From sequence record MT939240.1: 64,000 bases of DNA; one strand, given 5' to 3'. Source of the DNA: Enterococcus phage 9181. A program made the position numbers and the translations under genes. The notes below the pieces were generated by a model that was not told the origin of the DNA, searched no databases, and saw nothing but the letters and a program-made list of their open reading frames with translations. Shown in pieces: positions 5,421 to 56,415 of this stretch (position 1 is its first letter; each line of letters starts with the position of its first letter).

Positions 5421-6050
5421 ATTATTATTGATAAATAAGATGACATTTTGAGTCACATGCAAGGTAGCTGCGGGCACAGTTATCTTGCTTCTCTTAGGGG
5501 AGTGGCGTGAGGCATACGCACCGTGGAAGACACGGGGAAGTCAATAATTCATGAATAAACCTTCCATTATCTCTGGTTCGAATCCAGTCTTCCCTATAAC
5601 CTACAAAAGTAGGTCAATTAATTGGCGGTGGTTGCACGCCCCTTGATGATCGTTCGCTCAGTAACACGGTTGTCATTAACTCAATTAAGATGTTAAGCCT
5701 GAGCCATCTAACGAGAGTGACTGGTTGCATACGCCATGGACAAATGCGATCGAGGTTCCGTGCTAGTGCCTTAAGGGTAGCTCCCATAGCACCTTACATA
5801 TTTCCGTGACAAAGAGTTGTAAGAAGTGTATTCCTCTTTGGTTCGACTAGTCTTTACTAGCTCGTACGAGTTCGCAAGAAACTTAGGCAGACGTGCCCTT
5901 CCCACAAGTCAGCCGGTCAGGTGGGTTGCAGCGGATGTTCTCGTTGAAGCTGTCGTAAAGTGGACACCCTTGACCACTATAAATAAAGTTGCATAGGGGC
6001 GGAGACGTGGTAGTTAACCCTTGGGCATAAGCTTCTCTGCTCAAGTAAAT

Positions 6051-6121
6051 AGGTGAGTAGTGTAATGGTATCACAACGGACTCCAAATCCGTTAATGAGG
6101 GTTCGACTCCTTCCTTGCCTG
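6051..6121 (+). tRNA. tRNA-Trp (anticodon CCA)
   Basis: Hand-folded. The acceptor AGGTGAG/CTTGCCT forms 7 bp with 2 GU pairs. The anticodon arm is ACGGA-CTCCAAA-TCCGT. The T arm is GAGGG-TTCGACT-CCTTC. The D arm is GTGT..AATGG. No CCA is encoded. Confidence 0.6.
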
Positions 6122-6125
6122 TTAT

Positions 6126-6197
6126 AGCCACGTGGTGTAATGGAAAGCACAACAGACTTCTAATCTGTTAGTGGAGGTTCAAATCCTTCCGTGGCTG
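6126..6197 (+). tRNA. tRNA-Arg (anticodon UCU)
   Basis: Hand-folded. The acceptor AGCCACG/CGTGGCT is a perfect 7 bp. The D stem is GTGT/GCAC. The anticodon arm is ACAGA-CTTCTAA-TCTGT. The T arm is GGAGG-TTCAAAT-CCTTC. Confidence 0.65.
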
Positions 6198-6679
6198 TTG
6201 GAATGGCGATGGGTAACATGGACTGTCCGCCACCCAAGATGTGCTGCTTTCATACATCTAAAAGATGAGCCCTCGGTGCAGGTCGTTGAAAAAGCTTAGT
6301 ACTTTGTCTTCTATATGGGGACTTGGTAAGATGAGCCCTGACATTGGCTATCTCGTCATAGCCCTTGTAACCACGCCACGATTCTTTCGACAAAATACAT
6401 GGATTTCCGTGGTGGTGTGGGATTTGTTAGTTGGCAAGCAACTTTAAAACTTGATATTAGAGCGAGACTTAATGGCTCGTCAGTCAGATAAGACAGAAAC
6501 ATCAGTGGTTGGAGCTTTTACACTTAAAACAAAAAGATGGATAAGTTAGGCGTTACTTGTGAAGTGTTGCTAGAAGTTGATCGCTCTGGTGGGAGGTGCA
6601 AGTCCTCTCACGCCTATTGGGCAAACGCCCATTACCACATAAGGTTGAAATTCCTTGCATTTTTCATTCCTCCCTTTTG

Positions 6680-9786: not shown

Positions 9787-10323
9787 ATGCAAGAACGTTG
9801 GTGCGGAGTTTTAGGGTTGGAAAAATACTATGAAGTTTCCGACCGTGGGAGAATACGAACGGTCACTAGAAGAGACTCTCGTGGTCAGTTACGCCCCTCT
9901 AAATTTCTTAAGCCTTCTGGGAGATACTTGGCAACTACTTGTAGTATAGATGGAGGAAAACATTTCAGACTGTATGTACACAAAGAAGTATTGAGAGCCT
10001 TTTGCGGAGAAAGACCTGATGGAATGTTCATCAACCACATCAACGGTAATAAACATGATAACCGATTGGATAACCTTGAATATGTTACTCCTAAAGAGAA
10101 TAATGAACATGCTATGAGGAATGGTTTGACTAGTAAAAATTCCGTCGTAAAGATAACTCAACTAGATACAGGAATAATTTCACACCACCTATCAAAGAGA
10201 AAGGCATCCAAGTTTCTCAAAAAATACCCGTCCTATATAGCTGAAATATCCAGAGGATTGTACAAAAACACTAATCTAATAATAGAGGAGATACCATATG
10301 ACAATACACTGCGTTATATATAG
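9787..10323 (+). CDS. HNH homing endonuclease with N-terminal NUMOD4 motif (178 aa)
   Basis: NUMOD4 motif YEVSDRGRIRT, and HNH motif HINGNKHDNRLDNLEYVT. Confidence 0.8.
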   Translation: MQERWCGVLGLEKYYEVSDRGRIRTVTRRDSRGQLRPSKFLKPSGRYLATTCSIDGGKHFRLYVHKEVLRAFCGERPDGMFINHINGNKHDNRLDNLEYVTPKENNEHAMRNGLTSKNSVVKITQLDTGIISHHLSKRKASKFLKKYPSYIAEISRGLYKNTNLIIEEIPYDNTLRYI

Positions 10324-18895: not shown

Positions 18896-19243
18896 TTGAT
18901 TGAACAGTGGAGATACCTATATTACCAAGGGGTACTTTCAGATACATACGAAGTAAGTTCCTTTGGCAATATACGAAACGCCAAGAGCAAGAAGCTATTA
19001 AAACCACAGTACACCGGCTATGCCCACGTACGCATCAACCACAACGGACGAGTTCAAAACATACGACTTCATCGAGCAGTTGCTTCAACCTTTCTTCGAA
19101 AACTTGACACCGACAGCGTAGTAAACCACATTAACAATGATAAAACAGATAACCGTGTATGCAACTTAGAATGGATTTCCCAAGCCATGAACGTTCGCAA
19201 CTCACTAATGACTAGGGGGATTTTAAATGAAGAAGCCATCTAA
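18896..19243 (+). CDS. HNH endonuclease (115 aa, TTG start)
   Basis: AGGAGG RBS. Motifs YEVSSFGNIRN and HINNDKTDNRVCNLEW. Confidence 0.7.
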   Translation: MIEQWRYLYYQGVLSDTYEVSSFGNIRNAKSKKLLKPQYTGYAHVRINHNGRVQNIRLHRAVASTFLRKLDTDSVVNHINNDKTDNRVCNLEWISQAMNVRNSLMTRGILNEEAI

Positions 19244-27512: not shown

Positions 27513-27958
27513 GAGAACCTATTTTCAGAGTGTATGTGAACAAGGTGGGGTATTTAGCCCCTCCCCAATTCCTCATTACACCACGTGGGGACGTTTTGCT
27601 CAACAATGGGGACGACACTTGGTCATACCCTCCGCAAGACCTTGCCTACGTACTTGAACGAAGACTTAGTACAACCAGTGTAAACGGCTCCGAGGTTATC
27701 TTTGAAGGAGACCTCGTTAAACTTATTCCTGAGACTTTTGATAGTGTTGAACCAACCTTTGGATATGCTGCCATACGAGACGGTAAGGAAGGTATTGTAC
27801 TTGAGGGAGACATAGACTTTATCGGACTCCATGACAACGGCGCTGATCGCAAGCTAGAGAAGCTTGGTAAGAATACTACGTGGGGCGAGCCTTACGATAT
27901 TGAAAAGATTATTAAAGACTTTTATGAAAGAGAGGGTATAGATACCGTTGGGAATTAA
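27509..27958 (+). CDS. Hypothetical protein (149 aa)
   Basis: Overlapping start. Confidence 0.5.
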   Translation: MREPIFRVYVNKVGYLAPPQFLITPRGDVLLNNGDDTWSYPPQDLAYVLERRLSTTSVNGSEVIFEGDLVKLIPETFDSVEPTFGYAAIRDGKEGIVLEGDIDFIGLHDNGADRKLEKLGKNTTWGEPYDIEKIIKDFYEREGIDTVGN

Positions 27959-28551
27959 CTTGAAGGACTTTATCAAAGCGGACAACATTAAGCTTAGTCG
28001 AGAAGAAGTCAAAGAGTTTTTGCAAAGCTTTCTTGACATTAAGGAAGGCGAAGAATGGGCACAGGTAGAGGACTTTCCCTAAATACTTTGTGAGCACCTT
28101 TGGCAGAGTGCTTTCCTTGAAGACTAGCAATGTTAAATTTATTGGCACGAAGCCTAATCATACGTTTGGGTATACGGGTATTACACTAATTAGTGCTAAT
28201 AGTAAAAGGAGAACCACCTTGCACAGAATCGTGGCAGAAACTTTTATCCCAAAGCCACCAGAGTGGAGAGAAGATTGGCATGTAAATCACATCTCAGGAG
28301 ACCCTACTAATAATTCAGTTACCAACTTAGAGTGGTGCACTGCAAGTGAAAATTATTTACATCCTAACTGTAACCGTAAACGCTCTAAAAAAGTTCGTCG
28401 GATAAGCATTGAAGACGGATCGACAGAAATTTTTCTCAATGCCTCTGTAGCGGCTAGATCAGTTGGTGGTAGGGCTTCAGAGGTTTGGCGAAAGTGTAAT
28501 AAAGCCTCTAAAAAATTAGATTATATGAATTATTTTTGGGAGTGGGCTTAG
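27948..28551 (+). pseudogene. HNH/NUMOD4 homing endonuclease interrupted by a +1 frame change at CCC-TAA (28077-28082). Either a programmed +1 frameshift or a pseudogene.
   Basis: The frame-3 ORF 27948-28082 ends ...GEEWAQVEDFP*. The frame-1 ORF from 28069 continues KYFVSTFGRVLSL...NHISGDPTNNSVTNLEW. Together these give a contiguous NUMOD4 motif (EEW..V..FP.Y.VS..GRV) followed by the HNH motif. Confidence 0.5.
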
Positions 28552-28608
28552 CGCCTGCTCCTATTAGCGTTTGCGAAAGATTTTTCTATCTCTTAAATTT
28601 CTCGATTA

Positions 28609-28690
28609 TTTTCCTAACCTTCAAGTTTTTAAAAAATTTTCCTAACCTTCAAGTTTTTAAAAAATTTTCCTAACCTTCAAATTTTCGTTT
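28609..28690. repeat. Tandem direct repeat, 3 copies of a 28-bp unit TTTTCCTAACCTTCAAGTTTTTAAAAAA
   Basis: Copies at 28609-28636 and 28637-28664, and a degenerate copy from 28665. Confidence 0.9.
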
Positions 28691-29033
28691 TATTTTTTTT
28701 TGACTTTCAAAAATCAAGAAATTTTTTCCTCTTAAGCTAAATTTTATACTTTTTTTCAATATACTATTTGAAATTCGTGTCATATACGAGCATTCTGGCG
28801 CCTTTTCAAAAGTCTTCCCGACCAATTACCCACTTAAAAACCTCAGGCAACGCCTCTGCCACACCTCGATCCACCACCTTGACCAAAAATGTTACGAATA
28901 CACGCATCAAAAAGCGTTTAGTTAGTTTGAACGTAACAACTTTATGATCCTTTCAATAAAAGATATTTAATAAGCATACAGCAAAGCATATTCAGGAGCA
29001 TATGAAATGCTGATTATGAGCATATGGAAACAT

Positions 29034-29195
29034 GTTCCCCAGATTTTTGAAGAACTTCACTTAAAATATAACAAAAACATCCCCAGAATTTTGCATACAC
29101 TCCCCCAGATTTTAAAAGAAAATCACATAAAACATAGTAGTGGTGTGTGCGTGTGTGCCCCCAGATTTTTTAAAAAACACACATAAAACGTAATG
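29034..29195. repeat. Dispersed direct repeats. Four copies of CCCCAGA(T/A)TTT, each followed by an A-rich run and a CAC(A/T)TAAAAC box.
   Basis: Copies at 29037, 29081, 29102 and 29158. Confidence 0.85.
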
Positions 29196-29552
29196 AAAAA
29201 CACTTACTTGAAAAGCTATCAAAATAACACTTTTTAAGTCAAAATTAAAGGAAAAAAATGCCCCTTTCCAGATCAATAAAATAACGAACTTCCTACCGAA
29301 AACATTAAAACCTTTAAAAGCGCCCTATTTTGCACACGTAAAAAAGCCTTGAAAGCCTTGATGTTATTGGGTTTGTGGCTGTTTTTAGTGTCCAATTTGT
29401 AAAAGTTTCTACTATTAAAAGCCACAAAAAAGAACGCCAAAAAACTTTTTAGGGAAAATAAGAGAAAACTCTTGTATTTATTTTCGATATGTATATAATA
29501 AAGAGTGTAGAGAACAACAAAACAAAAATAACAGCAAAAAGGGGGTTTTGGT

Positions 29553-29639
29553 ATGTTTGGCTTTTGGGTATCTATGTTAGTGATGTCTTTGCTAGTTTGT
29601 GGCTTTGTCGAGTGGTTAGGCAACGGCGAAAAGAAATAA
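29553..29639 (+). CDS. Tiny hydrophobic peptide (28 aa)
   Basis: RBS AAAGGGGG precedes the ATG. Single TM. Confidence 0.3.
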   Translation: MFGFWVSMLVMSLLVCGFVEWLGNGEKK

Positions 29640-29782
29640 CAGAAAGTTGAAAAAAGTGTTTGACAACCTCGAAAATGTTTGATACACTTAATGAGTATTA
29701 AAAAGTAACATCTATTCGGACGAGCTTCAAAATGTTTCACTTATTCTAACTGTTTCAAAAATACACTTAAGGAGGTTTGCAC

Positions 29783-29889
29783 GTGTTTAATTATCGGAAT
29801 GAAAAGCAACAAAAAGAGCGTGACTTTTTTACACGTTGGTTCATCATTCTAGGGGCTTTCATAGGAATTGCGTTGGCTTGGTTCATGTA
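29783..29889 (+). CDS. Tiny hydrophobic peptide (35 aa, GTG start)
   Basis: RBS TTAAGGAGG 6 nt upstream of the GTG. Confidence 0.35.
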
Positions 29890-29992
29890 AAAAGATTTTA
29901 AAAAGGACTTGCGAAGCAAGCGCCAAAATGCTATCATGAAAAAGTAGTCAAAAGGTTATAAAAAACTAACTTATAAAAAGGGGTTTTCAAAA

Positions 29993-54589: not shown

Positions 54590-55291
54590 ATGGCACAACA
54601 AGATTTATGTCAAAGCAATTACGTCCGTGGGGTCGCGGTACTTATCGAAGTTCAGAACCCAGACACTGGTGAGTTCTCAAAAGTAGCTGCCCAACGTGGT
54701 GGTACATTAAACCGTGCAGCCGACACTTTGGATGCTTCTTCTAAAGAAGATTATGGATGGGCTAATAACGAAGCCGGTATCAAGTCTTGGTCAATCGACT
54801 GTGACGGGTTGTTCGTAGAGAATGTACAAGGTTTCGAAGACCTTAACGTAGCTTGGGTTAACGGAGATTGCGTACGTGTTCGGGTTCGCTTCCCTTCTGG
54901 GTTGACATTCGTTGGTAACGCAATTATCACAGACTTCCCAATCGAGTTCCCTTACGATGACGCTGTAACATACTCGTTGACATTTGAAGGTAAAGGCGCT
55001 TTGGTACAAGCGCAAACAACTCCAACAGTATTGCCTAAGTCTATCACACTAACTTCTGATAAACCTTCTATTGCGGTTGGAGCAAAAGCTCAATTAAGTG
55101 TTGCGTTCACTCCATCGAATACAACTGACCAAACAGTTATCTACACTTCTCTAAACCCTGCTGTTGCTACGGTTTCTGAAACTGGTGAGGTAACTGGTGT
55201 CAAAGCTGGTACTGCCACTATGAATGCTCGTTCTAACGCCAACTCTGCGGTAACGGCTATTGTCGACATTGCAGTAACGGCTGCACCCTAA
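54590..55291 (+). CDS. Major tail protein with C-terminal Big_2 Ig-like domain (233 aa)
   Basis: Position before the chaperone/tape-measure genes. C-terminal ITLTSDKPSIAVGAKAQL...ATVSETGEVTGVKAGTATM. A terminator follows. Confidence 0.6.
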   Translation: MAQQDLCQSNYVRGVAVLIEVQNPDTGEFSKVAAQRGGTLNRAADTLDASSKEDYGWANNEAGIKSWSIDCDGLFVENVQGFEDLNVAWVNGDCVRVRVRFPSGLTFVGNAIITDFPIEFPYDDAVTYSLTFEGKGALVQAQTTPTVLPKSITLTSDKPSIAVGAKAQLSVAFTPSNTTDQTVIYTSLNPAVATVSETGEVTGVKAGTATMNARSNANSAVTAIVDIAVTAAP

Positions 55292-55416: not shown

Positions 55417-55860
55417 ATGGCTCGTACATTTAGAATTTACAACGGCTCTGACATGCTTAAGGAAGGTGCGTCACTAAATGTTCTGGATGATCTTAAACCA
55501 GCAACTAAGTATAACCTTTTTATCAGCGTTGTAGAGGATGGTAAAGAGTCAGCTAAGGTAGCTGTTCCAGAGTTTACCACAAAAGCTGCCACCGTAGCTG
55601 TTACAGGCGTAACCATTACTCCTGAGACAGCGGAAGTAGTAGTCGGAGCAACAACAAGGCTTACTGCGATTGTAGCGCCAGTTAAAGCTTCTAACAAGAA
55701 AGTAACTTTTAGCTCTTCTGATAAGGATGTTGCTACAGTAGGTTCTGACGGAACTGTATCAGGAGTTGCTACTGGAGAAGCTACAATTACAGTAACTACC
55801 GAAGATGGGGATAAAACTGACACAGCAGTAATTATAGTGGCAGAAGCATCTGCCGAATAA
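55417..55860 (+). CDS. Big_2 Ig-like domain protein (147 aa), tail-surface decoration candidate
   Basis: VTGVTITPETAEVVVGATTRL...ATVGSDGTVSGVATGEATITVTT. Confidence 0.55.
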   Translation: MARTFRIYNGSDMLKEGASLNVLDDLKPATKYNLFISVVEDGKESAKVAVPEFTTKAATVAVTGVTITPETAEVVVGATTRLTAIVAPVKASNKKVTFSSSDKDVATVGSDGTVSGVATGEATITVTTEDGDKTDTAVIIVAEASAE

Positions 55861-55980: not shown

Positions 55981-56415
55981 ATGATTATTCAATTTCAAGG
56001 AAAAAACAGAAACTTAAAGATGACTTACTTTTCCATTCACTTACTGGAACTAGCATTTTCACAGCCATATGCAAACTTCATCATGGAACAAACTCCATTT
56101 AACCAATCTCTCTATTGCTTCTGGGCAATGATCCAAAATGACAAAGAATTTGAAGGTCTTTCAGTACCACAGATTGCCGACCTTTTGGACGAATCCTTAG
56201 AAAAGGAAGAGTTCACTCTCCAAGAATACTTTGATAAGGTAAACAAGAGCTACTCTGATAGCTTGATCGTACAACAGCTATTCAAGAAGTCGGGCTCTGA
56301 GAATCCCAGTGGACGGGGAGAGGGAAACTCCCCTACTAGAAGTAAGGTACTTCATGCAATTATGCGGAGACTTCGGAATTTCGCCAAGCGATTTTTGGAG
56401 AAGCACCCCGAATGA
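55981..56415 (+). CDS. Tail assembly chaperone (gpG-like, 144 aa)
   Basis: Position immediately before the tape-measure gene. Overlaps a downstream +1-frame ORF. Confidence 0.6.
   Translation: MIIQFQGKNRNLKMTYFSIHLLELAFSQPYANFIMEQTPFNQSLYCFWAMIQNDKEFEGLSVPQIADLLDESLEKEEFTLQEYFDKVNKSYSDSLIVQQLFKKSGSENPSGRGEGNSPTRSKVLHAIMRRLRNFAKRFLEKHPE

Follow-up and report, generated by a model that had tools for sequence, protein, structure and literature searches.

The DNA analysed here (the window) is a stretch of 64,000 nt from Enterococcus phage 9181 (MT939240.1), and all coordinates refer to it. The last gene in a run of small same-strand ORFs encodes a putative HNH endonuclease, and its coding sequence is divided between two reading frames. 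The minus strand carries only short ORFs here, and the pattern of variation across codon positions is compatible with coding on the plus strand alone. The locus contains the following features:

27930..27936, plus strand: Shine-Dalgarno-like GAGAGGG, 11 nt 5' of the TTG start of the upstream ORF (direct reading)
27948..28082, plus strand: frame-0 ORF of 44 codons and TAA, with a TTG start, ending GAC TTT CCC TAA
28050..28125, plus strand: NUMOD4 motif (Pfam PF07463), residues 35-59 of the joined protein, interrupted by an extra T at 28080
28066..28068, plus strand: TAG stop in the +1 frame, 9 nt 5' of the shift site, closing the +1 frame upstream in the window
28074..28083, plus strand: proposed +1 shift site UUU CCC UAA A, of which CCC TAA A is identical in 20/20 loci
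28077-28079 and 28080-28082, plus strand: CCC and TAA, the end of the 44-codon ORF
28081..28551, plus strand: +1-frame ORF of 156 codons and TAG, whose product comprises the rest of NUMOD4, the HNH catalytic core and a helical region at the C-terminus
28219..28353, plus strand: HNH_3 catalytic domain (Pfam PF13392, 36 bits), residues 91-135 of the joined protein

The start of the 44-codon ORF overlaps the stop codon of the preceding 149-aa gene. Relatives of the phage carry GAAGAGG at equal spacing and a GTG start codon, compared with GAGAGGG and TTG in the window. The product of this ORF contains a helical N-terminal extension of 33 residues and EEWAQVEDFP, which is the first half of the NUMOD4 motif. 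From 28081 onwards, the +1 frame reads AAA TAC TTT GTG AGC ACC TTT GGC AGA GTG and terminates at TAG (28549-28551). Because the TAG at 28066..28068 closes this frame, the 156-codon ORF of the window is not extendable upstream in its own frame.

Both borders of the gene have features of their own. On the 5' side, about half of the relatives contain an 88-aa ORF between the 149-aa gene and the endonuclease gene (L001, L002, L003, L008 and L013-L015, at about 2049-2315 or equivalent), which is absent from the window. Its boundary is a shared [G/T]TGGGAATTAA at the start of the 44-codon ORF (27948-27958 in the window), and the ORF is a small presence/absence cassette adjoining the nuclease gene. 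On the 3' side, about 1.4 kb (28552-29990) is devoid of any credible ORF and carries iteron-like direct repeats: 28569-28680 holds three units of 28 nt, and 29037-29199 holds four units that contain CCCCAGATTTT. In GenBank, the record of the related phage EH802P1 stops just past the endonuclease gene. The region might act as an origin, have a regulatory role or form a genome end.

The original prediction described an HNH/NUMOD4 endonuclease gene split by a +1 change of frame exactly at CCC-UAA, and held that skipping the T of TAA would restore one contiguous NUMOD4 motif followed by an intact HNH motif. The coordinates and frames can be read directly from the sequence: the upstream ORF ends ...EDFP-TAA and the +1 frame continues KYFVSTFGRV... 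When T28080 is skipped, the joined reading comprises 200 residues and is matched by both Pfam NUMOD4 (25.3 bits; cut-off 23.4) and HNH_3 (36 bits). The NUMOD4 match spans the junction between residues 44 and 45 and is found only with the joined reading; neither the upstream half alone nor the downstream half alone yields a match to Pfam NUMOD4. Both parts of the description are therefore upheld.

Homology and predicted fold extend across the junction. Intact single-frame homologues are present at 52-58% identity (51% by tblastn for EC55P1), and the joined reading aligns with them gaplessly at the junction. Among them are a gene of Enterococcus phage EC55P1 labelled “DNA endonuclease” and one that occupies the same position in a 72-kb JGI contig. 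Residues on both sides of the junction are invariant (E35, W37, V40, F43 and P44 before it; Y46, S49, G52 and R53 after it), as are H92, N113, H114 and N126 of the HNH core among 56 homologues. When the family profile was compared with solved structures, the sole match was to I-HmuI (1U3E; residues 2-98, E = 1.5e-11). An AlphaFold model of the joined protein, built from the 56 homologues, has a mean pLDDT of 86, and a predicted beta-strand formed by residues 43-49 (FPKYFVS; pLDDT 91-94) crosses the junction. I-HmuI 1U3E was again the sole significant match when this model was compared with the PDB using Foldseek (E = 4e-11, 180 aligned columns). On the basis of homology and modelling, the joined product is predicted to be an I-HmuI-like NUMOD4/HNH endonuclease.

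The window contains two more NUMOD4/HNH paralogues (9787-10323 and 18896-19243), both of which are intact. The endonuclease gene itself occupies the same genome position in all relatives, and no presence/absence polymorphism was seen among them. A hypervariable segment is present within the protein: at residues 71-100 (28159-28248), third-position diversity among relatives reaches 0.41-0.66 versus about 0.1 in flanking sequence, with a dN/dS of about 0.33. Recombination between alleles is one possible cause, and a changing specificity for the DNA target is another.

To compare the locus across relatives, we assembled 20 loci, consisting of four Enterococcus hirae phage isolates (EH802P1, EH802P2, EH93P1 and EH93P2) and 16 metagenome contigs, which together provide 14 distinct sequences of 604 nt. 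The four isolates are 86-90% identical to the window in this region, and the junction of each (4/4) is identical to that of the window. In 20/20 loci, the junction reads CCC TAA ATA C, the upstream ORF has 44 codons and the downstream ORF has exactly 156. The Phe codon before CCC is TTT or TTC among relatives, with TTC in L005-L007. The two-frame gene is real and conserved, and its layout is not private to phage 9181.

Comparison with homologous phages favours the original prediction in that the split is kept in all close relatives. When 5.8 billion protein clusters were searched, ten close ones were recovered (76-92% identity). Each represents a downstream half, and the start codons picked by gene callers vary. 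No intact allele was found among the matches, and none closer than 58% identity. In other searches, tblastn against GenBank phages recovered the four E. hirae phages and the intact EC55P1 gene (51% identity) and nothing else, a search of IMG/VR for further clade members or an intact allele gave no match, and in a single metagenome scan the matches were limited to distant HNH genes at 30-45% identity. In GenBank, the two halves are recorded as separate hypothetical proteins in OP172807.1 (L001 2440-2910) and OP172804.1 (L002 2474-2908), and the downstream half of EH802P2 and EH802P1 is without any annotation. None of these records annotates the gene as joined or frameshifted.

Each half of the gene is under purifying selection in its own frame. 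In the upstream ORF, the numbers of variable columns at codon positions 1, 2 and 3 are 4, 3 and 22 when read in frame 0 (P = 3e-6); in the downstream ORF, they are 57, 43 and 111 when read in the +1 frame (P = 7e-9). Pooled Nei-Gojobori dN/dS for the upstream ORF is 0.12 in frame 0 and 2.2 and 1.5 in the other two frames, and for the downstream ORF is 0.18 in the +1 frame and 1.1 and 1.9 in the other two. A change-point scan of the first 196 nt placed the change in codon periodicity at 28077-28092, a 16-nt interval that contains CCC TAA. Individual substitutions near the junction follow the same division. In L005-L007, TTC replaces TTT before CCC, which is synonymous in frame 0, and replaces TTT twice after the stop, which is synonymous in the +1 frame; in L004 and L008, GAT GAA replaces GAG GAC, changing ED to DE in frame 0.

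Gene callers have in some cases proposed a long +1-frame ORF beginning further upstream (P0002, P0005). These apparent longer forms are the +1 frame read back across the upstream ORF. They were rejected, given that dN/dS in the upstream +1 frame is 2.2 and that a TAG closes this frame in the window.

Two cautions apply to the selection analysis. Near the junction, third-position diversity is about 0.12 (0.09-0.13), the same level as in the flanking genes, which show 93-95% identity across all loci. The clade is shallow here, with diversity at the background level, and as a result the invariance of CCC and TAA is not significant alone. We considered lowered synonymous change at the site as a mark of an overlapping signal and rejected it, since diversity there is at the level of the flanking genes and it is the HNH body that is the outlier (diversity 0.47-0.66 at codons 71-90). 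Secondly, recombination with intact HNH genes may be the source of some of the divergence in the downstream ORF. If so, the selection argument is weaker for that segment.

These two ORFs are probably one gene, decoded through a conserved +1 ribosomal frameshift at UUU CCC UAA A. We infer the slip itself, its efficiency and its purpose as follows. Ribosomes would initiate at a weak start codon (TTG or GTG) overlapping the preceding gene's stop and, after 44 codons, would hold peptidyl-tRNA(Pro) on the rare codon CCC with UAA in the A site. The majority would terminate and release a 44-residue peptide. A minority would slip +1 from CCC to CCU and read on from AAA (Lys) for 156 further codons, the end product being a 200-residue enzyme. 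The predicted trans-frame tryptic peptide is EGEEWAQVEDFPK, with the Lys provided by the +1 frame and followed by YFVSTFGR. The likely purpose of such a slip would be to maintain a low dose of a DNA-cutting enzyme, adding to the effects of a weak start codon and translational coupling.

Several properties of the site are in line with this proposal. CCC T at 28077-28080 permits P-site re-pairing from CCC to CCU in 20/20 related loci, the stop codon directly 3' of the slippery codon (TAA, 28080-28082) is invariant in all relatives, and the nascent peptide ends in Phe-Pro in all relatives. CCC is used for 8.6% of Pro codons in the window (37/429). In Firmicutes, a single tRNA(Pro) UGG isoacceptor reads CCC by wobble, and slippage would be favoured if this holds for the host. 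The phage tRNA genes at 6050-6198 encode tRNA-Trp(CCA) and tRNA-Arg(UCU), and there is no tRNA-Pro among them. Other properties count against the proposal. UAA followed by A is an efficient terminator, and the frameshift yield could be low as a result. A Shine-Dalgarno-like GAGG is located 5 nt 5' of the site (28068-28071), and is lost in L004 and L008 (2/14 variants). No stimulatory RNA structure was detected around the site using RNAalifold, with shuffled z-scores of about 0.

Other ways of changing frame at this position were also considered. A tandem slip on UUU CCC U was rejected as a requirement: L005-L007 carry UUC CCC, and due to this TTC codon only the CCC to CCU slip is conserved. 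Transcriptional slippage was rejected on sequence grounds, there being no homopolymer run. A +1 slip is the simplest route between the frames, given that the KYFVSTFGR codons are conserved in the absence of a shared internal start bearing a Shine-Dalgarno sequence, that CCC can re-pair with CCU, and that a stop codon occupies the A site. The original prediction that this is a recoding site rather than a random indel gains support from the identical junction in all 20 loci, purifying selection in two frames, the switch in periodicity and published cases of CCC_UAA.

The main rival explanation, that the gene is split without recoding, is unlikely. On this explanation, an ancestral 1-nt insertion persists, the 44-residue peptide is released and a truncated HNH enzyme is made by termination-reinitiation at one of three +1-frame codons (4, 10 or 13), with the truncated enzyme possibly complemented in trans by the small peptide. 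Candidate starts do exist. There is a GTG at codon 4, 8 nt past the stop, in 11/14 distinct sequences, and in all relatives codon 10 is either GTG or ATG and codon 13 either TTG or GTG. Gene callers picked these internal starts, and selection on the downstream ORF is equally compatible with their use. However, the codon-4 GTG is lost (GCG or GTT) in 3/14 distinct sequences (L001, with L003 repeating it, L004 and L008), and no candidate internal start has a Shine-Dalgarno sequence whereas real gene starts nearby have one. The nine +1 codons between the stop and the first start shared by all relatives (KYFVSTFGR) also evolve as coding sequence, with four synonymous changes and one non-synonymous change. 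Furthermore, the NUMOD4 residues encoded by the upstream ORF stay conserved, and reinitiation would cut through the confidently predicted beta-strand at residues 43-49.

The probability is lower still that the locus is a decaying pseudogene, whose endonuclease was knocked out by a frameshift mutation in an ancestor and whose remnants are yet to erode. Degeneration is frequent among homing endonuclease genes, and the junction region is about 6-7% diverged among relatives, meaning that the event need not be ancient. GenBank annotators also left the downstream half of EH802P2 unannotated. Against this, the 14 variants of the downstream ORF record at least 300 substitution events with no stops (P = 9e-8 if neutral) and no indels, dN/dS is 0.12 and 0.18 in the correct frames, every locus has ORFs of exactly 44 and 156 codons, and the catalytic residues are invariant. 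One extra base beside a short C run is a common type of sequencing or assembly error, but the explanation that a spurious base splits an intact gene is effectively refuted by the identical junction in the four isolates, each sequenced independently, and in contigs that derive from no fewer than 16 different sequencing runs and were built with several assemblers, and by the lack of an intact allele among the matches from the 5.8-billion-cluster search.

The original prediction also pointed to a second +1 candidate within the phage, in the tail assembly chaperone gene near CCC GAA UGA. The relevant features are as follows:

55981-56415: G ORF of the tail assembly chaperone
to 56671: T frame of the chaperone, open to this position
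56688: tape measure gene

The T ORF is indeed in the +1 frame, compared with the usual -1, and the same layout is found in the Saphexavirus phages TV16 and IME-EF1. The proposed site is very unlikely to be the right one. A +1-frame peptide shared with TV16 and IME-EF1, LEVRYFMQLCGDFGISPSDFWRSTPNEFNG, begins about 90 nt 5' of CCC GAA TGA, and the shift must therefore be further upstream. CCC AGT at 56305-56310 lies just before this conserved peptide, and the equivalent position in TV16 and IME-EF1 is CCC AGA. From its position, CCC AGT is likely to be the chaperone +1 shift site, with a sense codon in the A site.

A further CCC TAA is found at the end of the major tail protein gene (54590-55291), which closes with GCA CCC TAA T. 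The +1 frame runs on for 21 codons here, and this extension (NPPQNVEVASITSTGATIIAE) resembles the first strands of an FN3 domain. It is followed on the 3' side by a terminator-like hairpin, a strong RBS and a separate ORF encoding a 147-aa Ig-like protein (55417-55860), which seems to hold the remainder of the FN3 domain. EH93P1 (L104) has ACA CCC TCG TGA at the end of its major tail protein gene and the same +1 peptide. This arrangement recalls the layout of SPP1 gp17.1*, but the extension looks interrupted.

Judging from the tail genes and the endonuclease gene together, it is plausible that a CCC-based +1 mechanism is shared within this phage group. A broader reading would treat the frameshift as a dosage or sensing device, as opposed to a tolerated lesion, with one host-dependent, CCC-based weakness in decoding controlling three unrelated genes and the endonuclease gene being the first of the homing-endonuclease type to be expressed by programmed frameshifting. 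We regard this as doubtful and put it forward tentatively. The amount of nuclease would be set by the speed of host termination at Phe-Pro-UAA together with the hold of tRNA(Pro) on the rare CCC, and the three genes would be the endonuclease gene, the chaperone gene with its CCC AGT, and the gene for the major tail protein, which ends in CCC TAA.

CCC-stop recoding has an established role in phage tail and capsid proteins, fixing the proportions in which two useful products are made. In phage 9181, the same signal occurs early in the gene of a DNA-cutting enzyme, and the shift would be needed for any enzyme to be made. If true, this adds homing-endonuclease-type genes to the short list of non-structural phage genes under +1 frameshifting and provides a simple explanation for the low dosing of a potentially toxic nuclease. 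It would also mean that the annotation of these phages needs correction, with the halves currently being separate hypothetical proteins or unannotated. The locus serves as a caution for annotation pipelines that such split genes are not to be dismissed as pseudogenes.

The mechanism proposed here is already known; the literature searched contained no instance of it in a gene of the homing-endonuclease type. Specifically, no frameshifted HNH or homing endonuclease was found in that literature, and nothing was found on the EH802 and EH93 phages. CCC_UGA is the classic shifty stop, and CCC_UAA is also used by phages Q54 and SPP1 (Gurvich et al. 2011, PMC3082878). In SPP1, slippage from the rare codon CCC to CCU within CCCUAA yields gp17.1 and gp17.1* at a ratio of 3:1 (Godinho et al. 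2018, PMC6316719). The SPP1 17.1/17.1* system and that of the Lactococcus phage Q54 share with the mechanism proposed for the phage 9181 gene the identical CCCUAA, re-pairing from a rare CCC to CCU and the gene's own UAA in the A site, as well as a Firmicute host and no need for downstream RNA structure. They differ in what the shift achieves. In SPP1, it adds an optional FN3 domain and results in two useful structural proteins at a fixed 3:1 ratio, whereas in phage 9181 it would take place 44 codons into a nuclease gene, would be required for any functional product, and would leave a short peptide as the product of termination.

The tsh genes of Listeria phages PSA, A118 and A500 contain (AAA)CCC_UGA, with CCC accounting for 5% of host Pro codons (Atkins et al. 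2016, PMC5009743). They resemble the phage 9181 gene in having a P-site proline codon beside a stop and a low-GC Gram-positive host in which CCC is rare. In contrast, their stop is UGA, they encode the major tail protein, and their shift adds a C-terminal extension as opposed to restoring an interrupted domain. At the UUC_CCC_UGA of E. coli pheL, +1 frameshifting occurs at up to 15%. It depends on the penultimate Phe as its main stimulator, whether encoded by UUC or by UUU, and the sequence on the 3' side is irrelevant. The nascent peptide of the phage 9181 gene has the same Phe-Pro end. The pheL stop is UGA, however, and its shift appears incidental, with a +1 product that is not conserved; phage 9181 has UAA and a conserved enzyme.

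Both Listeria PSA and prfB had been cited in the original prediction as precedents for a proline codon next to a stop. The CCC-UGA of PSA is an apt precedent, but prfB is not, as its P-site codon is CUU (Leu). The prfB site (CUU_UGA_C) is nonetheless similar in that an early in-frame stop makes a +1 shift obligatory for the full-length protein. Aside from Leu CUU versus Pro CCC in the P site, prfB has a precisely spaced Shine-Dalgarno-like stimulator 3 nt upstream compared with the non-conserved GAGG 5 nt upstream in phage 9181, and the autoregulatory logic of RF2 has no counterpart in the phage gene, where UAA is read by both release factors. A prfB-type autoregulatory site was therefore rejected for the phage 9181 gene, the site being CCC_UAA_A and its GAGG not conserved.

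With respect to the protein, the closest known system is I-HmuI (1U3E), a nicking HNH homing endonuclease from Bacillus phage SPO1. The two share an N-terminal beta-sheet NUMOD4 module, an HNH core and a C-terminal helical DNA-binding part. I-HmuI is encoded within an intron in a single frame, whereas the phage 9181 gene is free-standing, occupies two frames and carries an extra 33-residue N-terminal extension.
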